64,000 nt of DNA from an uncultured Holophagales bacterium (GTDB lineage Bacteria; Acidobacteriota; Thermoanaerobaculia; Multivoradales; UBA5704), in NCBI GenBank assembly GCA_963842525.1, contig CAWJGT010000014.1:32001-96000 (forward strand). Reading direction: 5' to 3'. A program made the translations under genes and the position numbers. Of this stretch, positions 13,767 through 28,245 are shown piece after piece. The notes under the pieces were generated by a model. That model had not been told where the DNA came from. It was given only the letters and a program-made list of their open reading frames with translations, and searched no databases. Numbering within the stretch: position 1 is the first letter of the stretch; each line of letters starts with the position of its first letter.

Positions 13767-16031
13767 ATGGCCCGGATCATCCTCGGCGCCGGGGTCCTCG
13801 CTACAGCCGGCCTCCTCTGGTTGCAGACGGCCCGGGGTGACGTGCCACCCCGGGGTCCGGTCTTCGAACAGGCTGCCCTCCCGGCCGGAGCGGCCTGGGC
13901 CGTGGATCCTCAGGACCCCGGCCCCAACCTTCCGCCCGCCGGCCGCTCCCTCTTCGACCTCCTGACCACCCATCTGGAGACACCGGAAGGGACGGCCCGG
14001 GTCCAGCGGGTGCCCTTCCCCTTCTCCGACCTCCTCGCCGCGATCGAGGCGCGGCTCGGGCGGCGGCCCGGCGAGCCCTCGCCCCTCAAGGGCGTCTTGA
14101 TCCCGCTCGGCCGCTCCCTCCAGCGCAACGCCGCCGGCACCGAGCTCTTCCGCTACCCCCGCGCGGTCGTGGCCGTGGATACCGAGGCCGCGGAGGGCGG
14201 GCTGTTCCTCAAAGACCGTCTCTACCTCGGCTATCACGAGAAGGCCGAGATCCTCGAGGTCCTCAGCTACAACGAGACGGCCGGCAGGTTCGAGTTCCAG
14301 ATCGTCCGCGACTACCGTCCGGGCGGCGAGGCCCGAGTGGTCTATGCCAACCGCGCGGTCTGCACCGCCTGCCACCAAGGAGGCGGACCGATCTTCGCCC
14401 GCCAGCTCTGGGACGAGACCAACGCCAACAAAGAGGTGGCACAGCTCCTCGCCGCCGAGAGGCGCGACTTCTACGGCCTGCCGGTCGGCCAGGGAGTCGA
14501 CATCCCCTACGCGATCGACGTCGCCACCGACCGGGCCAACCGCCTGGCCGTCTACCAGCTCCTCTGGCGCGAGGGGTGCGGCAACGGCGAGAAGGCGATC
14601 CGCTGCCGGGAGGCTGCATTCATCGCGGCTCTCCAACGCCGGCTCTCCGGCGGGGTCCTGCACGATACGGAGACGGAGAGCTTCCGCGAAGGCTTCGTCC
14701 GCACCGCCCGGAGCGCCTGGGAGGCACGCTGGCCCCAGGGGCTCGCCATTCCCGACCCGGACCTCCTCAACCGCGATCCCCTGACGACGAAAGGATCGGG
14801 CCCCGTGGCCGTGAGCGTGCCGGCGACCCTCCGCCCGGACGAGGCACAGCGGCTGGGCGGCCTCGTGCAGCGCTCCCACGTGCCGGCCATCTTCGAGCCG
14901 CTCAATCCCCGGCCGCCGCTGGAGGTCTGGACGGCCGCGGGCGCGGACGACAAGGGGCCAGGCCGCCTGATCTCCGGGCTGGGCGAATTCCTCACCTCCG
15001 AGGAGGTCCGGAGGCTCGACCAGCACCTCTTCGCTGCCGGGAGCCGGCCGGCGAGCCCGCGGGAGAGCATCACCGCTCCCTGCGAGGTGGCGGTGCAGAG
15101 GCGGGAGGGGGCCGCGGAGAGGGTCAAGATCAAGTGCTCTGCCGCAGGACGCCTCGCCCTGGAGGGACGATTCTTCCTGGACGGGGGCCGGGTGACGGGC
15201 GGGACGATCGAGCGCCTGGAGACCACCGGAGGCGTCCTGCGCGACCTCGACGTGACCGGAGGGACGGTCACGGCAGCGGACGGGCGCCGCGAGGTCGAGG
15301 CCGCGGTGGCCCAGAAGCTCTCGGGCCTCCACGCCCGCAGGGCCGACGGCAACGCCCTGGAGCGACTGCGGCTCACCTGGCGGGACGGCGAGGCGGCCGG
15401 CGAGGTCACGGCAGGCTTCCTCGCCGACTTCGACGCCGCCGAGGCCGTGATCGGGAAGCTCGCGGACCGCACGGAGAGCGGCGCAAGCGACGCCTTCTCG
15501 TCCCTGCCCTTCCGCCGCGCCGCCACCCTGGGCCCCCTGTTCGCCGGGCTCGGAATGGAGCCCGGCTCCTGCTGCCTCGACGAGTCCGGGCTGCCACCCC
15601 CCGTCCTGGAGCCGGACGGCGCGGCCGGGCCCGACGACTTCCCCGAGCCGGCGGTCAAGGCGCTCTACAGCTATTGCGCCCGCTGCCACGCCACGCCCGA
15701 GGTCTCGCCGCCCAACTTCCTCTACGGCGACGCTGCGAGCGTCCGTTCGAACCTCGCCCACTGCGCGGAGCGGATCTTCTTCCGCCTCGATGTCTGGCGC
15801 CTGCCTGCGGCAGAGCGGCCCAAGACCCCGATGCCGCCGATCCACTCCCTCGCCGGCCTCGGCCTGGCCACCGAGAGCTGGCCCGACGATCCCGTTCTGG
15901 ACCTCCTGCGGCAACACGCCGCCGGCCTCCTGCGTACACAGATAGGGGCCGCCCCACGCCTGGAAGCTCTGGAGGCGCGGGGCTACGAGAACCTGCAGAG
16001 CTGTTTGCCGCCGGCGCTTGCGGCGCGGTGA
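13767..16031 (+). CDS. Secreted protein with two CxxCH heme-binding motifs
   Basis: Signal peptide MARIILGAGVLATAGLLW, CTACH and C-terminal CARCH followed by PMPP (candidate axial Met). Confidence 0.75.
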   Translation: MARIILGAGVLATAGLLWLQTARGDVPPRGPVFEQAALPAGAAWAVDPQDPGPNLPPAGRSLFDLLTTHLETPEGTARVQRVPFPFSDLLAAIEARLGRRPGEPSPLKGVLIPLGRSLQRNAAGTELFRYPRAVVAVDTEAAEGGLFLKDRLYLGYHEKAEILEVLSYNETAGRFEFQIVRDYRPGGEARVVYANRAVCTACHQGGGPIFARQLWDETNANKEVAQLLAAERRDFYGLPVGQGVDIPYAIDVATDRANRLAVYQLLWREGCGNGEKAIRCREAAFIAALQRRLSGGVLHDTETESFREGFVRTARSAWEARWPQGLAIPDPDLLNRDPLTTKGSGPVAVSVPATLRPDEAQRLGGLVQRSHVPAIFEPLNPRPPLEVWTAAGADDKGPGRLISGLGEFLTSEEVRRLDQHLFAAGSRPASPRESITAPCEVAVQRREGAAERVKIKCSAAGRLALEGRFFLDGGRVTGGTIERLETTGGVLRDLDVTGGTVTAADGRREVEAAVAQKLSGLHARRADGNALERLRLTWRDGEAAGEVTAGFLADFDAAEAVIGKLADRTESGASDAFSSLPFRRAATLGPLFAGLGMEPGSCCLDESGLPPPVLEPDGAAGPDDFPEPAVKALYSYCARCHATPEVSPPNFLYGDAASVRSNLAHCAERIFFRLDVWRLPAAERPKTPMPPIHSLAGLGLATESWPDDPVLDLLRQHAAGLLRTQIGAAPRLEALEARGYENLQSCLPPALAAR

Positions 16032-16086
16032 GGCCTGCCCTCATCAGGGCTCCGTCAAAATCATCGTAGCGGGGGCCTCCCTCCGC

Positions 16087-16240
16087 ACCCTCACCCCCCG
16101 TCCCCCTCTCCCATCCGCACTCACGCCCACCCGGGAGAGGGGGCGCCACCGCCCAAAGCCTTGAAAAAACGAGCGTTGGGGGTTCCCCCTCTCCCGGGAG
16201 GATGGGCGTGCGGATGGGAGAGGGGGTCAGGGGGTGAGGG
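16087..16240. repeat. REP-like palindromic element, class A
   Basis: ACCCTCACCCCCCGTCCCCCTCTCCC ... GGGAGAGGGGGTCAGGGGGTGAGGGT; same architecture as 5970..6114. Confidence 0.85.
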
Positions 16241-16365
16241 TCTTGGGGCGGGGGAAACTCCGTCTCCCCCCGACTTTGACCGAGCCCCGGCCCCCGCCCG
16301 TCTGGGCTTGACGTGCGGCCTGGCGTCTCCGAAGATGAGGCATCACGATCCTGCGGAGGTCTCAC

Positions 16366-16821
16366 ATGCGGCTCCATCGAATGGCTCTCCTCGTCTTCCT
16401 GACCTCCGTCCTGGCGTGCGGCGGCTCCGGCGGCTCCTCCCCCACCGAGCCGCCACCGTCGTCGAATCCAGTCGCCCTGGAGGGATCGTGGAGCGGGAAC
16501 ATCACGGTCACGACTCCCGGCAATGCCGCGACCACCTGCACAACCCGCCTGACACTCTTTCTCGACCAGCAGGTCTACCTGGGGAACTGGGAAGCCCAGT
16601 GCGCGAACGGCACCGAAGGGCGGGGGGTCGCAAACGCCATCCTCGGCCCCTTCGACCTGGCGATCGTCAGCGGCCTCCTGGGCCAGACGGTCTTCGGCGG
16701 CTGTGGCTGGGGGTCCACCGCGATCCGCGAGGGCAACCGTCTCCGGGGGGAATGGAGCACGCCGGAGAACTGCCCGACCGGGCCCGTCCTGCGTGGCCGG
16801 ATCGAGCTGACGAAGCAGTAG
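16366..16821 (+). CDS. Hypothetical beta-rich lipoprotein
   Basis: RBS GGAGG, lipobox VLAC followed by a Gly/Ser/Pro linker, then GSWSG and paired Cys. Confidence 0.75.
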   Translation: MRLHRMALLVFLTSVLACGGSGGSSPTEPPPSSNPVALEGSWSGNITVTTPGNAATTCTTRLTLFLDQQVYLGNWEAQCANGTEGRGVANAILGPFDLAIVSGLLGQTVFGGCGWGSTAIREGNRLRGEWSTPENCPTGPVLRGRIELTKQ

Positions 16822-17054
16822 GATTCTGGCTCTGAAGCGACAGAGCCGCCGGCAGCGTCGCGCGGGTGGCGGGTGTCCATGAGAAAAGATTGGGCTCTCG
16901 CCGGGGCTCTGGCGACCTCCCCACGGCCTGAACTTTCACGCGCCGGCTGAATTCTCCCACGCGCTAAGTTATCTGGAGGTGTGGCCACGGCCGGGCCGAG
17001 CCTCCTCTGACGCATAAGAACTTCCCGTGTGCCTGAGAGGTTTTTGGGAAGTTG

Positions 17055-17253
17055 AGCCCCGCAGGGGCGGACGGAATTAGCCCGGGCATTCATGCCCGGG
17101 AAGGGAAGGCCAAATCCTCCATCCAGCCCCGTCAGGGGCGGCAGGAGGCCTGTCAGCCGGATTCCTGTCGCCCCTGGCGGGGCTCCGGGAATTTTGGATG
17201 CCTGATTCCCGGGCATGAATGCCCGGGCTAATCCCGGCCGCCCCTGCGGGGCT
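17055..17253. repeat. Long palindromic element, class B (AGCCCCGCAGGGGCGG ... CCGCCCCTGCGGGGCT)
   Basis: About 200-bp inverted repeat with nested arms TTAGCCCGGGCATTCATGCCCGGGAA / TTCCCGGGCATGAATGCCCGGGCTAA. Confidence 0.8.
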
Positions 17254-17590
17254 GATTTCCAGACACCCCTGAAACGCCAAGCGCACGTAAGGTTGGATGC
17301 GATCTGCCCAACCTCCTTCGCTTGTCGAGCATGACGTAGTTGCGACTTTCGCGGCACAGGGCTCCAGAATGCTTCTCCAAGTGCCTCGCCGGCCTTGACG
17401 CAGGTTAGAAAGAGGTGTAGAGTGCCGCTAAGTCGAAGAGGATAAGCACCTTGCACGCTCGACACCCTGGGACCGGCCGTGGAGTCAACCCGCAGGTTTT
17501 GTCGTATTGGCCTGCGAGCGGGGTGACGGCGAATATGTGAGGCAGGGGTTCGCCGCAAGCTAGGTACGAGCGATGCTAACTGATGGGGGA

Positions 17591-18304
17591 ATGATGAACC
17601 GGCGACCACGTGAAGTCATACTCGCTGCTCGGATCTCCTTCTACCGTTTTGAAGAGAACCAGAGCGGTTACCGCGACAAGGTCGAGTTTAAGAACCTTGA
17701 GGCTCCAAGAGACCACTTAGAGCGAGAGGTGCGACGGACAATCGAATCAGATTTGCCGGCTGAGCTCGAGGCTATTTATGGGCTCCGAGTAAGAACGCGG
17801 TTCATTACCACTCGGCCAGGGAGCGTTATTGCCTTTTTCGCGGTGGTGGTTGAGGCGCTGGGTATTTTTTCAAGCTACTCGGACTTTTTCGAGAGTATAT
17901 CTCTTGTGCGTAAACATTCGGCCGCTCTCCTAGAGCGCCTAATGGAGGAGCGGTACACGCCAGGTCCGAGCCTAACCTCAGATGTTTCGGTGACTGTCGA
18001 ATACCCACGCGTGCCTGATCCTGATGATCTTCATCCGGGTAGGCGGTTTTGGAAGAGATTCGGTCCTGAAGCTGACATGATGTTCGCCGCCGGTTGGAGT
18101 GGCTCACAGCCCCGAGTTCGGCGTGATGGCCTATTCTGGTGGTTGGTGATATGTAACCTCCTTTTTGCCGTTGCTCTAGGGGCCCTTGTCGCGGCAGCAG
18201 TCGTGAGGACATACTTCACTGTTGAACGTGGCCTCCCAGGAGGCTTTCACAAAAGCTCAGGAGCTGCCGAACCGGCAGCCGCATCGGAGAGGATCCAGAA
18301 CTAG
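17591..18304 (+). CDS. Hypothetical membrane protein, visibly lower GC than its flanks
   Basis: Open frame with protein-like composition and a TM segment LFWWLVICNLLFAVALGALVAAAVV. Start uncertain (17573 or 17591). Confidence 0.65.
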   Translation: MMNRRPREVILAARISFYRFEENQSGYRDKVEFKNLEAPRDHLEREVRRTIESDLPAELEAIYGLRVRTRFITTRPGSVIAFFAVVVEALGIFSSYSDFFESISLVRKHSAALLERLMEERYTPGPSLTSDVSVTVEYPRVPDPDDLHPGRRFWKRFGPEADMMFAAGWSGSQPRVRRDGLFWWLVICNLLFAVALGALVAAAVVRTYFTVERGLPGGFHKSSGAAEPAAASERIQN

Positions 18305-18414
18305 TCAGTATGCGAGTCGGCGGCGAACCCCCGCTTCCACCGGACGGCCGGCTTCGCCGTCCGCACGGTGAAGCGTCAAGGCGTTGGCCGTCTGCCTGCC
18401 GCCGGCGCTGAATG

Positions 18415-18820
18415 CCGCGCTGAGGGGCAGTGGTCCCGCGGTAGTGCCAAGGTTCCCCGCGGGACTATGGACGTTCACCGCAGCGCCGCGCAGTGGTCCC
18501 GCGGCACCGGCAAGGCTCACCGCGGGACCATGGACGTTCACCGCGGCGACTCGAAGTGGTCCCGCGGCAGCGGCAAGGCTCACCGCGGGAGCATGTAGCT
18601 TCCCCGCAGTGGGGTGAAGTGGTCCCGCAGCACCGCCGGAGCACACCGCGGGACCATGCAAGGTCACCGCGGCGCGGTCCAATGGTCCCGCAGGACCGCC
18701 AGTTCACACAGCGGGACCGTGCACGTGCACCGCGGGGAGGTCAAGTGGTCCCGCGGGACCGCCAGGCGGCACCCCGGGACCATACGCGTCCACCGCAGGA
18801 CCGTCACTCCCATTCGCGGT
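18415..18820. repeat. Tandem array with 21-bp phasing and six 63-bp hairpin units
   Basis: CCGCRG recurs every 21 nt (18436, 18457, 18478, 18499 ... 18793). RTGGTCCCGCRG starts at 18430, 18493, 18556, 18619, 18682 and 18745. Confidence 0.9.
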
Positions 18821-18877
18821 GGCCGTCTCGACCACCTGGAGCTCGATGGCCGCCACGGCTGCCGTGCTCACAGCCAC

Positions 18878-19201
18878 CTAGGCCTCAGGACGATAGCTTT
18901 CAGGCTCGCAGCGGCTCTCGACTGCCAGCAGGTCCTCCACTTCCCGAGCGGGGCCCGCCTGCTCGGGATCCGGGAAGACGCCGCGAAAAAAGTTCGCGGG
19001 GGGAATACCTGCGGCCTCCAGAACCTCCAGAACCTGGGTCATCTTAAGATGCCGGGTGCCAGCGAAGAGCCGGCTGAGATAGCCACTATGCTCGCTGAAC
19101 CCCATGCGGCGCTCGATCTCGCGGTTTGACAGACCGCTCAGGTGGAGGGCGACCTGAAGCAGACGACGCACTCTTGCCTCGTGCTCCTCGGCGGAAGTCA
19201 T
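18878..19201 (-). CDS. XRE-family helix-turn-helix protein
   Basis: LSNREIERRMGFSEHSGYLSRLFAG...VLEVLEAAGIPPANFF; RBS AAGGGG upstream. Confidence 0.75.
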   Translation of the reverse strand: MTSAEEHEARVRRLLQVALHLSGLSNREIERRMGFSEHSGYLSRLFAGTRHLKMTQVLEVLEAAGIPPANFFRGVFPDPEQAGPAREVEDLLAVESRCEPESYRPEA

Positions 19202-19398
19202 CAGTTTGTCCCCTTCAGGAAAGTCACAAAAAACTGGCCGGGCCGGACTACTCTCGACAATCCCCGTGGGCAGGCCCCAGGAGGGTCAGCTCCAGAGGGA
19301 CCCGGGGAGATGCCGACCACCGCACGGGAGAGGCTGCCCGCCTTGATCTCCCCCAAACCTCGCCCGACCCGACCAGACTCAAAACCGGTCCTCATCGC

Positions 19399-19695
19399 TC
19401 AAGATGGGAAAGCAGTCTTCATCTCGAGCCTGTATGCGACTGCTGGTGTGAAGCCTATAAGTCCGGCAAATTCCACGGGATCGTTGCGTGCAATTTCCGC
19501 CATCGCTTCTCGCGCACGTAACCCTGCCTCAGCGGGTGACTGGAAGACCAGCCAATCCACATCGGTCGCGTGAAGCACAGCTCCATGCTCACCCTCGTCA
19601 AGCTCGACTTCAACGATCTCGCCCTCGATTTGAATCCATCCTTGAGACTCCTGCGGGAGCAACTCTTCGTTGCCTACTTGGGGCGGCGCGATCAT
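19399..19695 (-). CDS. Small acidic hypothetical protein or gene remnant
   Basis: Protein-like composition unlike shadow ORFs. AAAAGGAG abuts the ATG with unusually short spacing. Confidence 0.35.
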   Translation of the reverse strand: MIAPPQVGNEELLPQESQGWIQIEGEIVEVELDEGEHGAVLHATDVDWLVFQSPAEAGLRAREAMAEIARNDPVEFAGLIGFTPAVAYRLEMKTAFPS

Positions 19696-19863
19696 CTCCT
19701 TTTGATGCTCCTCTCTACCGTGGCGAGGCCGCTACGACCCACGCAGGCGAGAGCAGCGACTGTTCCTCCGGGAGGCTCAGCATCCGAATTGGATGTTTTG
19801 GCCTTCTGTCCCGAAAACGTGCCCTGCGGCTACTTACTTGATGGATGGAGGGTCCTTTCGATC

Positions 19864-21351
19864 ATGGAGAATCGGCTTGCGGCTAGGGAAGAGACCACTC
19901 GGCAGAATTCTTCACAGATTGGCTTTGCCCTGGATCTCCTGATGCGCGGGCACGGCTGGACCGGGAAGAAGCTCGCTGAGGCCGCGGGCATCGCCCCCAC
20001 CACGATTTCCGCTTTTGTCAACGATGGCTTGAGCCGGGAGCGCCTGGAGGAGCTGGCCGAGCTCATGGGCCTGAGCCCGCAAGAGGTCGAGCGCGCCGTC
20101 CTCGCCGCCCGGCTTGTCCTGCCTCCCCAACCTTCTCCCCGCACACCGGTGGACCCCACACCCGAGGAGCGCCGCATCGCCGAGAAGGCCGCGGCCCTGG
20201 CTGCCTGCGAGGTGGCGGACCTCGTCCTGGACCTGCGCCTCCGGGAGATCCGGCAGGAAAACACTCGCCGTGATCTTGAAGAAGGAAGGAGGCTCGCCCA
20301 GGAGCTGAAGACCTACACGTCCGCCGACCAGCGCGTCCTGATCGAAGGAGCGCCGGACTACCAGCACTGGGGATTGGCCGTCGCCCTGTGCGAGGACAGC
20401 GAGAAAGCGACGCCGCGAAACCCAGATCACGCGCTGGCGCTGGCCGAGCTGGCCCTCTTCGTTGCCGAGCACGTGGAGGACAGCGCCTTCAAGCCCCGCC
20501 TCCAGGGCTGGTGCACCGGGGTTGGCGCGAACGCTCAACGAGTGCTCGGCCGCGACCTTCCCGGCGCTGCCACAACCTTTGCCCGCGCCTGGCGGCTCTG
20601 GCAAGAAGGTGAGGACTCGGCGGGCCTTCTCTCCAAAGCGCACCTACTCCATTTGGAGGCCTCACTACGCAGGGCTCAGCGGCTCTTTCCCAAGGCGCTG
20701 AAGCTGCACGACGACGCCCTGATGCTGGCCCGGCCCGAAGAGGAAGGCTCCATCCTGCTCAATAAAGCTGTCACTCTCAAGGAAAACGGCGATCCTGAGG
20801 ACGCCCTCCAGATTTTGGCACGGGCGGCCCGGCTCATCGACGCCGAACGGCAGCCACGGCAGAGATGTGTCCTGCGATTCAACCAGGCATCGAACCTGCT
20901 CCTGCTGGGTCGAGCCGCGGAGGCGGCACCGATCGTGGCCGAGGTCCGGGAGTTGGCCGGGCGGTTGCGCAACGCCGAGGACCTGGTGAGAACTCTATGG
21001 CTGGAAGGGAACTGCGCTGCCGGCCTGGGACAGAGTGAGGAGGCTCTCACCAGGTTGGAGCAGGTGCGGCACGAGTTCCAGGTGCGGGACAACCCCTTCG
21101 ACTACGCATTGGCGAGCCTGGACGTGGCGCTGCTCCACCGGCAGGAAGGCCGTTTTGTGGAAGTCAAGGTTCTGGCCGACCAGATGCTTGAGGTCTTCAA
21201 GGCTCAGAAGGTGGACCGGGAAGCCATTGCTGCCGTGATCCTGTTCCGCGAAGCCGCCCAAAAGGAGCAGGTCACCGTGGGGCTGGTCCGGCGTCTCCAG
21301 GACTACCTCTCCAAGGCGAGGAGCGATCCACAGATCCGCTTCGAGGGATAG
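19864..21351 (+). CDS. XRE-HTH plus TPR-repeat regulator, copy 1
   Basis: N-terminal HTH WTGKKLAEAAGIAPTTISAF, then TPR-like helical repeats (ILLNKA...GDPEDAL, LRFNQA...GRAAEA, LWLEG...GQSEEAL, YALASLDVA). Confidence 0.82.
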   Translation: MENRLAAREETTRQNSSQIGFALDLLMRGHGWTGKKLAEAAGIAPTTISAFVNDGLSRERLEELAELMGLSPQEVERAVLAARLVLPPQPSPRTPVDPTPEERRIAEKAAALAACEVADLVLDLRLREIRQENTRRDLEEGRRLAQELKTYTSADQRVLIEGAPDYQHWGLAVALCEDSEKATPRNPDHALALAELALFVAEHVEDSAFKPRLQGWCTGVGANAQRVLGRDLPGAATTFARAWRLWQEGEDSAGLLSKAHLLHLEASLRRAQRLFPKALKLHDDALMLARPEEEGSILLNKAVTLKENGDPEDALQILARAARLIDAERQPRQRCVLRFNQASNLLLLGRAAEAAPIVAEVRELAGRLRNAEDLVRTLWLEGNCAAGLGQSEEALTRLEQVRHEFQVRDNPFDYALASLDVALLHRQEGRFVEVKVLADQMLEVFKAQKVDREAIAAVILFREAAQKEQVTVGLVRRLQDYLSKARSDPQIRFEG

Positions 21352-21417
21352 TTGTTCGGCTGCTGACTTGCGAAGAGGAGGGAGGGGTTCGTTACCCCTC
21401 CCAAGAAAGTTGTGGCC

Positions 21418-21744
21418 TCAACTTCCGGGCAAACAGCCGCCGTGGGGATCAATCCCGCAGCCTTCACCCGTTGTGGGCTGCGAGACCGCGGCGCAGCCGC
21501 CGTTGGGGTCGAGATTGCAGCCCTCATCCGTTGTGGGCTGCGCGACTGCCGCGCAGCCGCCATAGGGGTCGATCATGCAACCATGCTCCGTCCAGACGGC
21601 CGTGAGGGTGCCCCAAAGGCGTGCGAGGATGTCTAACATGTGCGCCTCGGAAGAGGACCGGCTTGGCGTTGCCCAGGCGGGTGCGCACAACAGGGTGGTG
21701 ACCAGGAAGACGAGGAGGATACGGGCAAGTCGGCGATGGGACAT
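21418..21744 (-). CDS. Small secreted propeptide with three GCx[IL]DPxGGC repeats (108 aa)
   Basis: RBS AAAGGAG, signal peptide MSHRRLARILLVFLVTTLLCAPAWA, and repeats EHGCMIDPYGGC, DEGCNLDPNGGC, GEGCGIDPHGGC. Confidence 0.85.
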   Translation of the reverse strand: MSHRRLARILLVFLVTTLLCAPAWATPSRSSSEAHMLDILARLWGTLTAVWTEHGCMIDPYGGCAAVAQPTTDEGCNLDPNGGCAAVSQPTTGEGCGIDPHGGCLPGS

Positions 21745-21886
21745 ACCGGCTCCTTTGGCGGAGGCGGCCTTCAGGACGGCCGCCATGGCCGCGAAGACGC
21801 CCCCGATCCCTCCATGGTGCCCGGACCCGGTGAATTTATCCAACTCGGGCCCACAGCGGTGTGGGCCAAGGCGGTAAGAGAAAGCC

Positions 21887-23386
21887 ATGGCGCGCGACGA
21901 GAGCGAGCACGACGATCAGCACGAGAAGATCCTTTTCGGCGACTTCATCTCCTTTCTTCGCTGGCTGCCGGGGAATTGGTCCCAGGCCCACTTCGCCAGG
22001 AAGGCCGGGATCGACCGCAGCGACCTCTACTCCTATGAAAAAGGAAAAAAACGGCCGCGGGAAGCGACGTTCCAGTTGATCCGGTCGGCAGCCGGCGTGC
22101 CCCAGCGGCTCATTGGTTTTCTCCGCTGGTGCCACTGGCTGGTCCGCAGGGCGCTCGCCCTGGGCCAAGTGGACACCGCTCCGGCCACGGCGCCCCTGCG
22201 TGAAGCGACCCGGGCGGCCGTGTGGGACATCGTCGAGCGGGCGCTGGCCCTGGCCCGCGCGGAGCAAGCGCTGTTGCGGAACGCTCCGCGCCGGCTCGGC
22301 CCTCCGACACAGGAAGACCAACAGCGGGTTTCCGCGCTGTTCGAGAAGCTGAAGAGCTATCCACGGCAGAAGCGGCAGCTTCTCGTTCAGGGCGCGCAGG
22401 CGTACCGTGATCCTTTGCTCTGCCTACATATTTGCCAGAAAAGCGAGGACGCCGCAGCAAACGATCCGGGTGAGGCCCTGGTGCTGGCCGAGTTGGCCCT
22501 GTTCGTTGCCGATCATGTGGAGGAGGGCGTCTTCAAGCCCAGCCTCCAAGCCTGGTGCACCGGGGTCCTCGCAAACGCTCAACGAGTGATTGGCCGGGAC
22601 CTTCCTGGCGCTGCCACAACCTTTGCCCGCGCCTGGCGGCTCTGGCAAGAAGGTAAGGACTCGGCGGGCCTTCTCTCCAAAGCGCACCTACTCCATTTGG
22701 AGGCCTCACTACGCAGGGCTCAGCGGCTCTTTCCCAAGGCGCTGAAGCTGCACGACGACGCCCTGATGCTGGCCCGGCCCGAAGAGGAAGGCTCCATCCT
22801 GCTCAATAAAGCTGTCACTCTCAAGGAAAACGGCGATCCTGAGGACGCCCTCCAGACTTTGGCACGGGCGGCCCGGCTCATCGACGCCGAACGGCAGCCA
22901 CGGCAGAGATGTGTCCTGCGGTTCAACCAGGCGGCGAACCTGCTCTTGCTGGGCCGGGCCGGGGAGGCGGCGCCGATCGTGGCCGAGGTGCGGGAGCTTG
23001 TCGAGCGGCTGCGCAACGAGGTGGACCTCGTCAGAACTATATGGCTGGAAGGGAACTGCGCCGCCGGGCTGGGCCGGCGTGAGGAGGCGCTCACCAAGCT
23101 GGAGCAGGTGCGGCACGAGTTCGAGGTGCGCGAGAACCCCTTCGACTATGCACTGGCAAGTCTGGACCTGGCGATGATCTACCGCGAGGAGGGCCGCTTC
23201 GCGGAAATCAAGGCTCTGGCCGACCAGATGCTGGAGATCTTCAAGGCCCAGAAAGTACACCGGGAAGCCATTGCTGCGGTGATCCTGTTCAAGGAAGCCG
23301 CCGAGAAGCAGCAGGTCACCGCGGAGATGGTCCAGCGGCTCCAGAAGCAGCTCTCCAAGGTGAGGTGCGAAGTAGTGCCACCATAG
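21887..23386 (+). CDS. XRE-HTH plus TPR-repeat regulator, copy 2
   Basis: HTH WSQAHFARKAGIDRSDLYSYEKGKKRP; TPR region very similar to copy 1. Confidence 0.85.
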   Translation: MARDESEHDDQHEKILFGDFISFLRWLPGNWSQAHFARKAGIDRSDLYSYEKGKKRPREATFQLIRSAAGVPQRLIGFLRWCHWLVRRALALGQVDTAPATAPLREATRAAVWDIVERALALARAEQALLRNAPRRLGPPTQEDQQRVSALFEKLKSYPRQKRQLLVQGAQAYRDPLLCLHICQKSEDAAANDPGEALVLAELALFVADHVEEGVFKPSLQAWCTGVLANAQRVIGRDLPGAATTFARAWRLWQEGKDSAGLLSKAHLLHLEASLRRAQRLFPKALKLHDDALMLARPEEEGSILLNKAVTLKENGDPEDALQTLARAARLIDAERQPRQRCVLRFNQAANLLLLGRAGEAAPIVAEVRELVERLRNEVDLVRTIWLEGNCAAGLGRREEALTKLEQVRHEFEVRENPFDYALASLDLAMIYREEGRFAEIKALADQMLEIFKAQKVHREAIAAVILFKEAAEKQQVTAEMVQRLQKQLSKVRCEVVPP

Positions 23387-23442
23387 ATCCGAGGGCGGGG
23401 CTGCGACCCGAACGGCTAGTTCTACTTTGGCTTTGTAGATTT

Positions 23443-23518
23443 GCTGGGAGCGCCGGCATCCCTGCCGGCCGGCTAACCAAAGACGAAGAAGGCCGGCAAG
23501 GATGCCGGCGCTCCCAGC
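23443..23518. repeat. REP-like inverted repeat, class C (GGGAGCGCCGGCATCC ... GGATGCCGGCGCTCCC)
   Basis: About 27-bp inverted arms between convergent genes; a second copy lies at 24119..24259. Confidence 0.8.
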
Positions 23519-23540
23519 GGGGTCTGCAGGAAAGTCGCTG

Positions 23541-23866
23541 TCAACTTCCAGGCACGCAGCCGCCGTTGGGATCGATTTTGCAGCCCTCATCCGTTGTGGG
23601 TGCCGAGACTGCCTCACAGCCGCCATGCGGGTCGAGCATGCAGCCATGATCCGTCGTGGGCTGCGATGCCGCGCAACCGCCGTGTGGGTCGATGTGGCAG
23701 CCTTCCTCCGACCAGACGGCCGTGAGCGAACCCCAGAGGCGTGCGAAGATGTCGAGCAAATGCGCCTTGGAGGAAGACCGGCCTGGCATTGCCCAGGAGG
23801 GTGCGCACAACAACAGGGTGGCGACCAGGAAGACGAGGAGGATACGGGCAAGTCGCGATGGGACAT
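23541..23866 (-). CDS. Small secreted propeptide with three GCx[IL]DPxGGC repeats, copy 2 (1-bp deletion around codons 4-5)
   Basis: RBS AAAGGAG followed by ATGTCCCATCGCGACTT, versus ATGTCCCATCGCCGACTT in copy 1. Repeats EEGCHIDPHGGC, DHGCMLDPHGGC, DEGCKIDPNGGC. Confidence 0.8.
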
Positions 23867-24118
23867 GCTGGCTCCTTTGGACGTGGCCGTCGAAGGAATA
23901 GCATAACCCCAGGAGGGTCCTATGTATTGTTCCCGGATACCACCACCAGAGCAGTGGGACAAAGTCGAGAAAGGTCACCGCAGGACGTTCCGCTGTACCC
24001 ACCACGGTCTACCCTTCCGAGTGTTCTGCGGGAAGCCAGCAGTGGCGCTGGTGGGTGCCGATCCGCGCTGCGCGGAGCACTTCATCCAAAGTAGGCGCTA
24101 ACTTTCGCCGGAGGGAAA

Positions 24119-24259
24119 CCTGGGAGCGCCGGCGTCCCGCCGGCCCGGAGCTTCGCCGGCCGCTTGGGCACCGTCAGACACCACCACCGCTCCAGCTCTA
24201 GGCGGCCCCATCTCCTCCACGGCCTCGTGGAGAGCCGGCGGGACGCCGGCGCTCCCAGG
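24119..24259. repeat. REP-like inverted repeat, class C
   Basis: CCTGGGAGCGCCGGCGTCCCGCCGGC ... GCCGGCGGGACGCCGGCGCTCCCAGG. Confidence 0.8.
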
Positions 24260-24429
24260 GCCACCCTCCCCGACCCGGCTGTCACACAGGTGGACGAGGC
24301 AAAGTGAGCGCCTATGCCCGCCAGCTCCCCGGGAGAGGGGCTCGACCGCGTTGTACGCGGTCCCCGGTTGCCGTAAAATGTCTTCCGGGTTCGCGATAAA
24401 TACGAATCCCGTCGAAAGGGAGGTGTCCA

Positions 24430-24693
24430 ATGACCATGTTCCGCAAGGTCCTGACTGCGAGCGCTGTCGCCATTGTGCTTGCCTCCGTGCCCTCGCATCT
24501 AGCGGCACAGGATGGGCCAGCCGCGACCGAGGTACGCGCCTCGATGCTCGGGTGGTTTACCAGTATCTGGGGTGATCTCACCGCCTGGCTCGCTGGCGAA
24601 GTGGCGCCGGCTCCGCCTCAGCCCGAATGGCTTTCTCAGAGCCAAGCCGACAACGGGTGCATTGTCGACCCGCACGGCGGTTGCGGCGGTTAA
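24430..24693 (+). CDS. Small secreted propeptide with one C-terminal DNGCIVDPHGGCGG motif (87 aa)
   Basis: RBS GGGAGG, signal peptide ending LAA-Q, amphipathic WFTSIWGDLTAWL segment, and the same core motif as the other two peptides. Confidence 0.85.
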   Translation: MTMFRKVLTASAVAIVLASVPSHLAAQDGPAATEVRASMLGWFTSIWGDLTAWLAGEVAPAPPQPEWLSQSQADNGCIVDPHGGCGG

Positions 24694-24742
24694 AGCAAGG
24701 GCTTCTCTCGGTAGAAGCTTTTGGGCTATCATCCACGGGCTT

Positions 24743-25768
24743 ATGGCCCAACACCCGGGAGTGGGCGTGTGCTTGCCACCCTTCAGCAGCCCGGCGGCTG
24801 CGCGCCTCAGCTTGACCAACCAGCCGAACCCGAGTCGGATTCTTGCCGTCGCCGAGTACGGTTACAGCCTGAGGTTCGTGGATCCTCCTGCCGGGGTTGA
24901 GTGGTGCCGGGTCGCCGCAGACGTGTTCACCGACACCCTGGACCCGAGCCTACGGGGGCGGGTGGTTGGCTACTTCGGCAACAGTCTTCGCGTGGTGGGC
25001 AACTACGATGAAGCCAGGGAGGTTCTCCGTCTCGCGCTCGAGGTCCTTCCTGGCGACCCGCTCCTCCTCGAATTCAAGGCGTCCCTGCACCGAGACGTCC
25101 GTCAATTTGAAGTAGCTACCGAATGCCTGCGCGACGCCGCCGGGATCCAGCGGGCTTGTGGTGACGTGGCAGGGTTCGCCCGTACGCTGCTCATTACGGC
25201 CCAGGTGATGGACCTCGCTGGAAAATCGCAGGGAGCGGCCGGGCTTTGCCTCGAAGCCTTGGACCTTTTGGACAGCGCTGTTGACCCAAGCCGCAATCTC
25301 CTGCGGACTGCCGTCCAGAATTATGCGGGATACATGTGCCATGCTGGAAAGCCGCTGGCGGCACTGCGGGCTCTGCGAACGGCGGAGCCTTTGCTCGCTA
25401 GCGAGGAGCCGTACTTTAAACTTCGTCTCGAGTGGTTGTTCGGCCAGATCGCTGCCGCACTCGGCGACGAATCGGCTGAGCGTCGATTGGAGTGCGTCCG
25501 GCAAGAGTTCGCGAAAGGTGGCCTTTACCATGAGGCAGCTATCGCTACGCTCGACCTGGCCAGGTACTTCGTGCTCCGCCGGGACCCCCGCGCTGCACCC
25601 GTGGCGCTGTCAGTTGCCCCACTTCTCGAGTCTTTGGGGATCGATCGCGATGCTCGGGAAGCGAAGCTTCTCGGTGAGCTCGCGATGGCTGATTCGAACG
25701 TCGAGCACCTTATCGCCGAGCTCTATGAGGCGATCGTGTGGCGCCCCGCGGCGCGGCAGGTCGCCTAA
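24743..25768 (+). CDS. TPR-repeat protein without an HTH
   Basis: TPR-like YFGNSLRVVGNYDEAREVL, LEFKASLHRDVRQFEVA, LRLEWLFGQI and AAIATLDLA, homologous in pattern to the TPR part of the two HTH-TPR proteins. Start uncertain. Confidence 0.75.
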   Translation: MAQHPGVGVCLPPFSSPAAARLSLTNQPNPSRILAVAEYGYSLRFVDPPAGVEWCRVAADVFTDTLDPSLRGRVVGYFGNSLRVVGNYDEAREVLRLALEVLPGDPLLLEFKASLHRDVRQFEVATECLRDAAGIQRACGDVAGFARTLLITAQVMDLAGKSQGAAGLCLEALDLLDSAVDPSRNLLRTAVQNYAGYMCHAGKPLAALRALRTAEPLLASEEPYFKLRLEWLFGQIAAALGDESAERRLECVRQEFAKGGLYHEAAIATLDLARYFVLRRDPRAAPVALSVAPLLESLGIDRDAREAKLLGELAMADSNVEHLIAELYEAIVWRPAARQVA

Positions 25769-26133
25769 CGACCGGCAGCGCCACCGCTTTCGTCTTCGTC
25801 GTTCAGCCGCGGCCGAAGCCCGTAGCGTTCCATTGCGCGAAGGAAGCGCGTATCAAAGTCGTCGTCCGCGTCGCGGAATCCCTCTTTCCCATAGATGCTG
25901 GCGAAGAAATCGGCTGGCTTCAGGCCAAGCGCCAGGAGCACGGTAAAGATGTGCTCGGCGGTCACGGCGATGCGCCCCTTGAAGAGGTGGGTGAAATAGC
26001 CGTCGGCCCTGCCGGTCCTGGCCGCAAGCTCCTTGAGGTCAACTCCGCTCCGGTCCACCGCCTGCTGCAGGGCCTCGCGGAGCACTTTCGTCATCTCCTT
26101 TGCCTCGCGCTGAACTCGGGCTGGGCTGCGCAT
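25765..26133 (-). CDS. XRE-family helix-turn-helix protein
   Basis: GVDLKELAARTGRADGYFTHLFKG...LLALGLKPADFF; paralogous in pattern to 18878..19201. Confidence 0.75.
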   Translation of the reverse strand: MRSPARVQREAKEMTKVLREALQQAVDRSGVDLKELAARTGRADGYFTHLFKGRIAVTAEHIFTVLLALGLKPADFFASIYGKEGFRDADDDFDTRFLRAMERYGLRPRLNDEDESGGAAGR

Positions 26134-26193
26134 GTGCCTAGGATACGCCCCCCGCGCGGGGACCGTCAACTGAAGCGACTTCAATTTGGGGTG

Positions 26194-26222
26194 TTGACAA
26201 TCTCAGTTTGCTGTCTTATCCT
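26194..26222 (+). promoter_or_regulatory. Sigma70-like promoter TTGACA-N17-TATCCT
   Basis: Perfect -35, 17-bp spacer and 4/6 -10 match, in an AT-richer region divergent from the HTH gene. Confidence 0.6.
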
Positions 26223-26374
26223 TCAGTCATGGACATCAAGAGGCTCTTCCAGATGCCCGATCCGAGCCTCATGGATCGACTGAGGATTCTGAAGAAGCTG
26301 ACGTAGGAACAGCGCGCATTGAGTCACCCTTCCGGAGCCGATCGAGGCCCGGAATTTCCGAAAGGAGAAGCAGT

Positions 26375-26689
26375 ATGGTTACTCAGCAAGCAGTCGAGAC
26401 GAGTCTGAAGCCGGAGCGGGTGCAGGAGCCGTTCGCGACCGGAGCGGCGGCGCTCACTGCCGGAGGGCTGGTCATCCAGCTCAAGGCGGAGCGGGTGCAG
26501 GAGCCCACTCTGGCCGCGGCGGGAGCCACCGTCACCTACACCTACGAGCTCGCGGTCAATCAGCCCCAGGTTGTGGAGATCGAGCTTCCCATGGCGATCG
26601 TCACCCTTCTGGGTAGTCCCGCCTGGGGGGCTCCCGAGGTCGTGCCCGCTGCGGGCTGTCCCGCAGGAAAGGAGGAAAACAATGCCTAG
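26375..26689 (+). CDS. Small hypothetical protein with a duplicated LK[PA]ERVQEP motif
   Basis: RBS AAAGGAG; the motif occurs twice; stop overlaps the next gene. Confidence 0.65.
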   Translation: MVTQQAVETSLKPERVQEPFATGAAALTAGGLVIQLKAERVQEPTLAAAGATVTYTYELAVNQPQVVEIELPMAIVTLLGSPAWGAPEVVPAAGCPAGKEENNA

Positions 26690-27098
26690 AGCCAGTTCGT
26701 TTGCCCACGTCATACGGGACTGGGAGAGTCTGCTCGCTGCCCTCAACCAGCATGCAGAGCTCCAGGTCACTCTCGAAACCGAACGTCTGGCCCTGGAGAC
26801 CGACTTGACCGAGGCGCGGGCTCTCAAGACGCAGCAGGAGACACAGAATGCTGGCCGGCAGGAGCTGACGCAGCGGATCAAGACGGTGGTGGCCCACGGC
26901 AAGGACGTGGCCATTGCGATCCGGGCCGTGACCAGGGGCAAGATCGGTTTCCGCAACGAGCGGCTGGTCCACTTCGGAATGACTCCGTTCCGCAAGCGGG
27001 TGCGCAAGCTGGCGGTCAAGCCGGAGGGCGAGGAACCGGGCGACGAGCCCACCGGGCCGGAAGCTTCGGCGGGTGGAGCCAAGACGCTCGACTCCTGA
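26682..27098 (+). CDS. Small helical hypothetical protein, paralog A (…G..NE.L..FG..P.RKR)
   Basis: RBS AAAGGAGG; MPRASSFAHVIRDWESLL...; followed by an intrinsic terminator. Confidence 0.8.
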   Translation: MPRASSFAHVIRDWESLLAALNQHAELQVTLETERLALETDLTEARALKTQQETQNAGRQELTQRIKTVVAHGKDVAIAIRAVTRGKIGFRNERLVHFGMTPFRKRVRKLAVKPEGEEPGDEPTGPEASAGGAKTLDS

Positions 27099-27115
27099 AC
27101 AACTCAACACACCCT

Positions 27116-27145
27116 GGGGGCGTGCTCCGGCACGCCCCCTTTTTT
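27116..27145 (+). terminator. Rho-independent terminator
   Basis: GGGGGCGTGC-TCCG-GCACGCCCCC followed by TTTTTT. Confidence 0.85.
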
Positions 27146-27181
27146 GGAAGCCAACGCCGTTTCTATAGAAAGGAGAGGATC

Positions 27182-27550
27182 GTGTCGAAGCCGAATTCAT
27201 TCCGGGCTGTGCTCGCAGACTGGGAAAACCTGCTCAGCGCCGTCGGAGCTACGTCGTACGACATTCCTGACATCGCTTCCATCCGGAACGAGCTGGAGGA
27301 TGCTGTCCAGAAGGCCCGGGCGCACAAGATCCAGCAGGTTGCGCTCCAGATCGCCAGCCAACAATCGACGCGCCAGGTGAACGAGGCCTTGGCGCACGGC
27401 CGGGAGGTGGTCTTGCGAATGCGCAGCTTTCTGAAGGGTCGTCTCGGTCCCCACAACGAGGAGCTGCTCCGCTTCGGGGTCGCCCCAATCCGCAAGCGCG
27501 GGTCGCGCCACACGCTTCTGCCGCGGGCCGTGGAATCCCAGGTCAACTGA
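27182..27550 (+). CDS. Small helical hypothetical protein, paralog B
   Basis: RBS AAGGAGAGG and GTG start. SF..V..DWE.LL.A and G..NE.L..FG..P.RKR are shared with paralog A. Confidence 0.8.
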   Translation: MSKPNSFRAVLADWENLLSAVGATSYDIPDIASIRNELEDAVQKARAHKIQQVALQIASQQSTRQVNEALAHGREVVLRMRSFLKGRLGPHNEELLRFGVAPIRKRGSRHTLLPRAVESQVN

Positions 27551-27589
27551 AGCTCTCACAACTCCCTTGGGGGCGTGCTGCGGCACGGC

Positions 27590-27815
27590 CGGCCTGCGCG
27601 TCCCCGAGCTTCTGCACGATCTGACGGGCGGCACCGACACCAAGCACTACCAGCACCTGACCCGCAACGTCTATCGCTTCATGCCGATCCCTGTCACCAG
27701 CGAGGATCTGCCCCGCCTCCATGGCACGAACGAGCGGGCGGGTGTCCAGGACTATGGCGGAGCTGTCCGTTTCTACGCGCAGCTCCTGCGCAACGCGGCG
27801 GGCCAGCCTATTTGA
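27590..27815 (+). pseudogene. C-terminal fragment of an M20-family peptidase
   Basis: GGTDTKHY...NVYRFMP...LHGTNER matches the M20 C-terminal metal-binding region. There is no N-terminus, and the fragment starts at a broken terminator. Confidence 0.7.
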
Positions 27816-28245
27816 ACAGCGCGTCGAAGGCGGCGCGGGCGTCTCCCGGGGCTGGCTTGTCGGAGTCCTTGGCGAACTCCTGCGCCACCTTGGGGGTGAA
27901 AAGCGTGCACTCGTTGCGGGTGCTCTTCTTGAGGATCTTCGCCGGGATCGCCTCGAACTGGCGGCACTCCCAGCGGGCCGAGGTGTCGAAGTGGATGCAG
28001 TTCGAGCAGGTGTGGAGGTCCATGCCGCATTTGGCGCAGGTGGCGTCGACGGGGACCTCCTCGGTGAGGACCCGTTTCTCGCCGCACCTGGCGCAACGGA
28101 AGACGCTCTCGGTGGGGGCTCCCATCCCCCGGCCCCGCGGCGGCCCGTCTTTCTTCTCCCGAGGCGGCGGCGGACCGGGACGCGGGCTGCCGCGGTCGCC
28201 CGAGTCCTGGTAACCGCGCTGGCGGTATTTGCGCTCATCGGACAT
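27808..28245 (-). CDS. Cys-rich putative zinc-binding hypothetical protein
   Basis: RBS GGAGG; CARC, CAKC, CSNC plus two further Cys; ends ARAAFDALFK. Confidence 0.78.
   Translation of the reverse strand: MSDERKYRQRGYQDSGDRGSPRPGPPPPREKKDGPPRGRGMGAPTESVFRCARCGEKRVLTEEVPVDATCAKCGMDLHTCSNCIHFDTSARWECRQFEAIPAKILKKSTRNECTLFTPKVAQEFAKDSDKPAPGDARAAFDALFK

Follow-up and report, generated by a model that had tools for sequence, protein, structure and literature searches.

Tetratricopeptide-repeat proteins paired with predicted exported DPxG-core peptides: an expanded cassette family of Acidobacteriota with a possible RRNPP-like role

Receptor/propeptide systems of the RRNPP (or RRNPPA) type, which include Rap-Phr, NprR-NprX, PlcR-PapR, Rgg-SHP, PrgX and AimR-AimP, are known mainly from Bacillota and their phages. 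Some of their receptors are devoid of a helix-turn-helix (HTH) domain, as is the case of Rap. Such peptide systems are described as typical of Bacillota, and peptide pheromones read by cytoplasmic tetratricopeptide repeat (TPR) receptors are treated as a hallmark of that phylum, a detection tool and reviews being framed in this way (PMC10075063 among them). Propeptides with several peptide copies have been described among them (PMC9765709, and also PMC11343458). The DNA analysed here is a 64,000-nt stretch, hereafter the window, from an uncultured Holophagales bacterium of the phylum Acidobacteriota (assembly GCA_963842525.1, contig CAWJGT010000014.1, positions 32,001 to 96,000). It carries three TPR genes (TPR A, TPR B and TPR C), each lying next to a small open reading frame (ORF; pep1, pep2 and pep3) for a predicted exported propeptide. 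All three pairs belong to a cassette family that is lineage-specific and has expanded massively in this Acidobacteriota genome. The TPR module and the peptide very probably form one functional unit, for which the best reading, put forward tentatively, is a convergent, RRNPP-like receptor/propeptide signalling.

Several features bring the cassettes close to RRNPP systems. The TPR-type receptor, cytoplasmic to judge from its sequence, occurs with or without an N-terminal XRE-type HTH, the adjacent small gene encodes a predicted exported propeptide whose active or core part lies at or near the C-terminus, and several peptide copies can be present in one propeptide. An analogy with RRNPP systems had been proposed in an earlier reading of the window made from its letters only (the sequence-only reading); it held for layout and linkage, which match RRNPP logic, but did not extend to the receptors themselves, for which no sequence homology to RRNPP receptors was detectable. 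The cassettes also differ from RRNPP systems in their host, a soil acidobacterium with Omp85-family proteins, in a new peptide family with an invariant DPxG and often a predicted disulfide loop, in the conserved Trp-rich pro-helix of these peptides, in triads where two receptors surround one peptide gene, in copy numbers of about 60-100 per genome, and in a third output module (H-x3-C-x2-C).

Other described systems share part of this organization. The SHPs of Rgg systems are small hydrophobic peptides without a Sec signal. In Streptococcus pyogenes, the paralogous receptors Rgg2 and Rgg3 have opposing outputs and respond to the same short peptides (PMC3150281). The same two-receptor, one-peptide logic is proposed here for the triads, although a shared ligand is suggested in their case only by the concerted evolution of two TPR modules. 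In Streptomyces, WhiJ-type XRE regulators have small DUF397/BldB-like genes beside them and form many paralogous cassettes in one genome. Each cassette likewise pairs an XRE-HTH regulator with a small partner gene, but the partners are cytoplasmic and without signal peptide, TPR module and repeated C-terminal core are missing, and the phylum is another one. In heterocystous cyanobacteria, the RGSGR peptides of PatS and HetN act on HetR, which also combines a diderm, a gene-encoded short peptide motif and a cytoplasmic DNA-binding regulator; the receptor fold is different, however, and there is neither an adjacency rule, nor expansion, nor a tandem-core Sec-type propeptide. No description of RRNPP-type signalling in Acidobacteria or of such a TPR/peptide system was found in the literature searched, and a PADLOC search for defence systems returned only weak HTH matches, for TPR B.

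The linkage between peptides and TPR genes was evaluated over the whole genome. A profile hidden Markov model (HMM) built from 15 peptides was run on all 121,887 stop-to-stop ORFs of the 9.95-Mb genome and retained 45 of them (E<=1e-3), and phmmer searches with TPR A, B and C retrieved 113 ORFs, merged to 100 loci (E<=1e-5). Of the 45 peptide ORFs, 35 were located no more than 300 bp from a TPR paralog and 42 no more than 1 kb away; when they were placed at random (200 trials), on average 0.69 of 45, and never more than 4, fell within 300 bp. Of the three located farther than 1 kb, one is close to a contig end (about 750 bp) and another is without a start codon. When the genome was screened by motif alone, for ORFs with xDPxG at the C-terminus and a hydrophobic stretch, 60 were obtained, 38 of them already in the HMM set; 13 of the remaining 22 were no more than 700 bp away from a TPR gene that would otherwise have passed for an orphan, bringing the candidate peptides to at least 58 in this genome (45 from the HMM and these 13). 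In other genomes, the ORFs flanking the peptide were inspected at 15 loci, chosen as best-scoring matches to pep1-like peptides, so that this sample favours the pep1-like subfamily: a TPR gene adjoined the peptide at 14 loci, and 12 were triads. Genome-wide linkage, on which the sequence-only reading had staked its proposal beforehand, thus proved very strong. The three pairs it had recognised are real, although that count understates a family of about 60-100 members per genome and one of the small ORFs, pep2, is frameshifted.

Translation starts were also considered. Forty of the 45 HMM-detected ORFs begin with ATG and one with GTG, mostly with an AGGAG-like Shine-Dalgarno (SD) sequence; for three, an upstream TTG was chosen by the script, yet an SD-preceded ATG lies inside, and three, including pep2, have no usable start. 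According to a crude heuristic of our own, 42 of the 45 have a signal-peptide-like N-terminus.

Among the genomes sampled, the peptide family was found in the acidobacterial family of the source and, within the order, in a few families close to it. Its HMM has matches in all 24 genomes of the source's family (up to 38 in one genome) and, for other families of the order, in 8 of 16 genomes; an even sample of the phylum, in which scoring covered 15 candidates per genome, gave matches in 2 of 301, both from the source's family. The TPR family occurs in 38 of 41 relatives, with at least 38 matches in many of them, and in 8 of 151 genomes of the phylum sample, all from the same class. At five loci examined from that sample, the match starts at family position 64-120, two of the five begin with an H-x3-C-x2-C-like module, and no DPxG peptide was found near these five TPR loci. 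Searches of larger protein collections gave 758 relatives of TPR A at E<=1e-30 among 1.84 billion representative proteins, and 13 relatives of pep1 among 5.8 billion proteins (word-seeded search). Named relatives were metagenome-assembled genomes of Holophagales, Acidobacteriota and Thermoanaerobaculaceae, and the TPR homologues bore the source name 'tetratricopeptide (TPR) repeat protein' or none. No plasmid match to TPR A was found by tblastn.

Several observations concern the arrangement of cassettes along contigs (designated C followed by a number). Identical peptide ORFs with similar flanking TPR genes are present on two contigs of this genome at C9:2480-5977 and C18:938-5668, and again at C8:907-1215 and C10:32941-33249, often near contig ends; either they were duplicated very recently or the assembly is redundant here, its estimated contamination being 3.4%. 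A run of about seven TPR paralogs at C9:424000-437500 is interspersed with peptides of a distinct subtype, which end in C-I-D-P-x-G-x-P-x-P-C, a longer Cys loop, and were found by the motif screen and missed by the HMM. In a relative (genome G024), a tandem array at C4:221000-228500 shows peptide and TPR genes alternating at least three times.

Translation of the three small ORFs of the window confirmed the layout described in the sequence-only reading: a signal-peptide-like N-terminus, a Trp-rich helix and GCx[ILV]DPxGGC cores, three in pep1, three in pep2 and one in pep3. The three TPR proteins, two with an XRE-HTH and one without, were all present where that reading had placed them, and the variable residues of the seven cores (M/N/G/H/M/K/I and Y/N/H) were as it had listed. 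The ATG of pep1 lies 7 nt after AAGGAG, and its product consists of a signal peptide (...APAWA|TP), the helix LARLWGTLTAVW and the cores GCMIDPYGGC, GCNLDPNGGC and GCGIDPHGGC. Its paralog pep2 shares this ribosome-binding site and ATG, but 1 nt is missing after codon 4 (window 23855-23866), which puts the ATG out of frame; as assembled, there is no in-frame start near the signal peptide, and pep2 is either a pseudogene or the product of an assembly error. In pep3, GGGAGG precedes the ATG, and the signal peptide and the helix WFTSIWGDLTAW are followed by a single core, GCIVDPHGGC, then by GG and the stop codon; close paralogs were found at C1:560974 and C34:233930. At the DNA level, tandem units of 60 bp and 57 bp inside pep1 and pep2 were found independently (TRF). 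Two other readings of the N-terminus were discarded: a lipoprotein signal at 'LLC', by eye, because Leu precedes the Cys and an AxA site follows, and Tat export because the RR pair is not conserved among paralogs.

The 142 cores of 58 distinct peptides, 15 of which come from relatives and the rest from this genome, were compared and defined the unit [DE](-6)-x-G(-4)-C(-3)-x-[IL](-1)-D-P-x-G-x-C(+2), in which D-P-x-G is invariant by construction of the core search. Of the 142, 126 have G(-4) and 114 have I or L at -1, whereas positions -5, -2, x and +1 are highly variable. Both Cys were present in 97 cores and none in 35, so that the C-x7-C disulfide loop suggested earlier cannot be retained as a general feature. 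Peptides contain from one to four cores; in 55 of the 58, the last core is separated from the C-terminus by 0-6 residues, and in 14 peptides the chain ends with DPxG itself. Conservation is highest in the Trp-rich helix, with W44 invariant and W51 conserved at 90% or more in a 15-peptide alignment. Between pep1 and pep2, the six variable codons differ at 13 of 18 nt vs 40 of 302 elsewhere (Fisher p 8e-8), a comparison that is illustrative and not a clean test because these codons were picked from the same sequences. Among four close paralogs, variable positions had a dN of 0.77, against 0.07 for the scaffold and 0.17 for the leader; dS was 0.25-0.54 outside the variable codons and dN/dS 0.14 at scaffold sites, while dN/dS within variable codons is unreliable owing to the saturation of pS (0.73). 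This pattern of fixed scaffold, variable positions and C-terminal last core suggests a pheromone-like design.

Two cassette layouts were distinguished. In triads, an A-type TPR gene faces a convergent peptide gene on the opposite strand, itself divergent from a B-type TPR gene; the window triad is A-pep1-B, followed by the degenerate pep2. In the co-directional layout, a TPR gene follows the peptide gene in the same orientation, for example pep3-TPR C, and the TPR protein has no HTH in the cases examined: it is accompanied by an abutting small HTH gene (in the window and on C34) or carries a ~45-aa N-terminal module with the motif RHLLxGCxxC. The TPR gene with abutting small HTH gene, as in TPR C/sHTH2, recurs at C34:232441-233864, and the small-HTH family has 19 members in the genome, 14 of them within 3 kb of a TPR ORF. 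The RHLLxGCxxC module (H-x3-C-x2-C) was found in 23 ORFs, 10 of which are fused to TPR family ORFs. A possible resemblance to ZAS-type (zf-HC2) anti-sigma domains was considered; in Pfam, 8 proteins gave no zf-HC2 match at E<=0.01. One TPR module thus exists under three N-terminal states (HTH, H-x3-C-x2-C or none), with a peptide gene beside each kind.

Comparison of the window regulators pointed to a mosaic origin of these proteins. TPR A (HTH_3 E 1.7e-6, TPR_12 E 1.1e-8 in Pfam; no transmembrane stretch by eye) and TPR B (HTH_3 E 1.8e-5, TPR_12 E 6.9e-9) share 86% identity in the TPR module and 17% in the N-terminal 170 positions. At the DNA level, identity is about 45% over the first 550 nt and reaches 295 of 300 positions across 20601-20900 (about 22630-22940 in B), a block suggestive of recent gene conversion limited to the TPR module. 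TPR C displayed TPR matches only, the best with TPR_12 (E 3.6e-5, 24.3 bits, under Pfam's cut-off of 30.1 bits); its homology with positions 190-465 of the A/B family (hhalign, probability 98.9, E 1.6e-17) identifies it as the sensor module without HTH.

The relationship between triad partners was then analysed for seven triads (14 proteins) of this genome, the TPR module being defined as family positions 200-480 and 83-97 ORFs being comparable. For 12 of the 14 proteins, the triad partner was the closest TPR-module paralog (rank 1); in the two exceptions, this rank was taken by an identical duplicate of the partner, located on a different contig, and by a further fragment of a partner gene that is broken. 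Over positions 1-170, on the other hand, the triad partner ranked 2-27 among about 32, and the best match was a same-type protein of another triad. With relatives added, A-B identity within the triad (0.53-0.95 in the TPR module) exceeded the best same-type match in 11 of the 13 triads with data. By their sequences, the DNA-binding halves follow the type and the sensor halves follow the locus, which is what selection by a shared ligand encoded between A and B would give. The two TPR modules around one peptide evolve in concert, and this fits one shared ligand, with neutral gene conversion between neighbours as the alternative.

The signalling reading can be laid out as follows. A cassette would consist of a cytoplasmic TPR sensor, either fused to an XRE HTH or to the ~45-aa H-x3-C-x2-C module or standing alone beside a small HTH gene, and of a propeptide. 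The latter would be exported and cut to short core peptides, disulfide-closed where Cys are present, which could return to the cytoplasm, for instance via an Opp/Dpp-type permease, and be bound there by the TPR module of whichever regulator, or regulators, flank the peptide gene. In triads, the same peptide would be read by an A/B pair whose DNA-binding parts differ, and binding would change transcription; RRNPP-like signalling would here have been arrived at independently. That the TPR module travels with the peptide under three N-terminal outputs, and that flanking modules evolve in concert, supports this reading. The genome contains five Omp85-family matches, so that the organism, taken as a probable diderm in the sequence-only reading, has an outer membrane; LpxC was not matched at E<=1e-10 in this genome, which is 96% complete. 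Four DsbA-like thioredoxin-fold proteins (Thioredoxin_4/DsbA-like) are encoded, and Opp/Dpp-type parts are represented by three SBP_bac_5 proteins, one OppC_N protein and an oligo_HPY ATPase. Together with the Omp85 proteins, these parts make Sec export, disulfide closure and re-import possible.

The position of the SBP_bac_5 genes was not counted as evidence for a link with the cassettes: two of the three are located within 5 kb of a TPR locus, and the one examined is part of a histidine-kinase operon. There, at C9:398000-411000, the SBP_bac_5 gene is followed by a dCache-HAMP histidine kinase gene, with small HTH, peptide and TPR genes 1-3 kb away.

A number of points weigh against the proposed receptor/propeptide signalling. 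In a bacterium with Omp85, a released peptide would have to cross the outer membrane or exert its effect in the periplasm. With DPxG invariant and the helix conserved, few positions remain to provide about 60 channels with specificity, and the ~300-bp block of A and B is near-identical while pep1 and pep2 differ in all six variable codons, so that there is no obvious receptor-peptide co-variation there. Concerted evolution of neighbouring paralogs can be the result of neutral gene conversion. Moreover, at 56 of the 100 TPR loci the HMM detected no peptide within 300 bp, a count from which the 13 motif-screen candidates were not deducted. As for the receptors, they match only generic TPR and XRE/HTH models, HTH_3 and TPR_12 each being found in 79 of 85 TPR-family members, and RNPP_C is not among the 25 most frequent Pfam families of these 85 proteins. 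RNPP_C hit no TPR locus of the genome either, a weak negative since the model also missed the Bacillus subtilis control. Sequence and profile searches of the PDB led to designed TPRs, IFIT, OGT and HipB-type HTHs, and to no RRNPP receptor. Membership in the RRNPP family by homology is not supported, and the resemblance is one of logic.

The main rival explanation, unlikely in our view, is that of a regulator and its target: the HTH-TPR protein would control the adjacent gene for a secreted small protein having its own job (antimicrobial, multi-headed protease-inhibitor-like loop array, metal binding or surface modification), and the TPR would sense something else. Peptide and B-type genes do diverge from a short palindrome-bearing intergenic region, as is typical of local regulators. 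In the window, this perfect palindrome is a candidate operator; it is the sole 0-mismatch copy in the genome, a 1-mismatch copy being located at the paralogous C19 locus, and it may be conserved by descent only. Its status as a family-wide operator was rejected, as it recurs only at this one close paralog. As helix and linkers are conserved, the pro-region may be important in its entirety, and disulfide-closed 9-residue loops in which a hydrophobic residue precedes Asp are reminiscent of the reactive-site loops of small inhibitors; the presence of one to four cores per peptide and the Cys-free quarter of the core set (35 of 142) are nevertheless at odds with a fixed fold. It is also difficult, if the peptide is only a target, to account for its staying beside the TPR under three output types, including HTH-less TPRs that are unable to bind DNA themselves, and some 60 private regulators for some 60 near-identical effectors are hard to rationalise. 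No recurrent enzyme, immunity or transporter partner was observed among the cassette neighbours.

A feedback from secretion is improbable. The TPR would in that case bind the unexported precursor by its helix or signal region, and export would free the regulator with no re-import, in the manner of the chaperone/co-activator circuits of secretion systems. The problems of outer membrane and re-import would disappear, TPR domains often bind helices, and the Trp-rich helix is the most conserved element of the peptide. However, a near-invariant helix provides no channel specificity, yet the TPR modules are strongly triad-specific; Sec export is constitutive, with no evident signal to sense, and the hypervariable C-terminal cores would be left without a role.

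More improbable still are precursors of ribosomally synthesised and post-translationally modified peptides (RiPPs) or bacteriocins, with enzymes encoded elsewhere (making for instance Cys-Asp cross-links) and TPRs acting as regulators or recognition partners. A multi-core precursor with a leader-like conserved helix and hypervariable cores has the general appearance of such a system, although Cys-free cores are common and Sec signal peptides are unusual for RiPPs modified in the cytoplasm. The peptides belong to no Pfam or NCBIfam family (E<=1, 15 members), the only matches being at chance level, among them PA1571_fam (E 0.049) and QH-AmDH_gamma (E 0.7); the latter, obtained with pep1, recalls a cross-linked subunit but is not significant. 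As noted in the sequence-only reading, no modifying enzyme is adjacent, the flanking ORFs containing no enzyme family; none was found in the window, and none recurs near the 45 cassettes, where clustering of neighbours was noisy in high-GC DNA. Lastly, chance frames in DNA of 65-70% GC, where spurious ORFs are many and where the motif could be a DNA repeat, as the tandem-repeat nature of the cores might suggest, are effectively refuted by the usual strong SD and ATG starts, by the 42 signal-peptide-like ORFs, by protein-level conservation across genera with synonymous change (dS and scaffold dN/dS given above) and by the matches in every genome of the bacterial family.

The coordinates of the regulator block are collected in Table 1.

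Table 1. Features of the regulator block, in window coordinates
Feature	Position	Strand	Description
sHTH1	18878-19201	-	Small stand-alone XRE-like HTH gene; weak Pfam HTH_3/HTH_31 matches
TPR A	19864-21351	+	A-type XRE-HTH + TPR regulator; convergent with pep1
pep1	21418-21744	-	Propeptide of 108 aa; three cores; HMM E 1e-52
Palindrome	21848-21867		Perfect palindrome GGCCCACA-N4-TGTGGGCC in the 142-bp pep1/TPR B divergent intergenic region; candidate operator
TPR B	21887-23386	+	B-type XRE-HTH + TPR regulator; divergent from pep1, convergent with pep2
pep2	23541-23866	-	Paralog of pep1; cores GCHIDPHGGC, GCMLDPHGGC, GCKIDPNGGC
pep3	24430-24693	+	Propeptide of 87 aa; one core; HMM E 1.4e-21
TPR C	~24743-25768	+	TPR module alone, without HTH; downstream of pep3 on the same strand; start codon picked by analogy with paralogs, ORF open from 24512
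sHTH2	25765-26184	-	Small stand-alone HTH gene (Pfam); convergent with TPR C and abutting it; start uncertain (TTG 26184 or ATG 26094)

The surroundings of this block presented some features of their own. The G+C content is 0.63-0.66 at 16000-28000, the regulator block included, vs 0.68-0.73 in most of the remaining window. Two Rfam Acido-Lenti-1 RNA motifs, at 17055-17100 (-) and 17208-17253 (+), scored 46.8 and 45.9 bits, above the gathering score; they are inverted relative to each other and about 110 nt apart. Between a membrane-protein-like ORF (17573-18304) and sHTH1 lies a 63-bp tandem repeat (18422-18798; 6 copies, 77% matches) that would have a 21-residue period if translated. Downstream, 26571-27098 and 27122-27550 are tandem paralogs of an uncharacterised family, with 33 and 23 phmmer matches in the genome, eight of the 33 being within 3 kb of a TPR ORF.

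A fuller version of the signalling reading, possible though rather doubtful, can be considered. One family of Acidobacteriota would maintain at least 58 private channels per genome, in which exported DPxG-core peptides, often disulfide loops, would be read by dedicated A/B receptor pairs with different DNA-binding heads (activator- and repressor-like) or by TPR modules on other outputs. This would represent the first RRNPP-type signalling outside Bacillota and in an outer-membrane bacterium, with an independent origin from a TPR sensor that elsewhere in the class has another N-terminal module and no peptide partner.

Even if the peptides are not ligands, the cassettes provide a large family of peptides predicted to be secreted and a case of mosaic evolution of regulators, both new as far as our searches reach. 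Acidobacteriota are abundant in soil and hard to culture. If the signalling reading is true, a convergent system in this phylum would extend the logic of TPR-receptor signalling to diderms and would offer a genetic handle on the social or regulatory behaviour of these bacteria, and the dozens of paralogous channels with their paired receptors would constitute a natural experiment on the diversification of peptide-receptor specificity.

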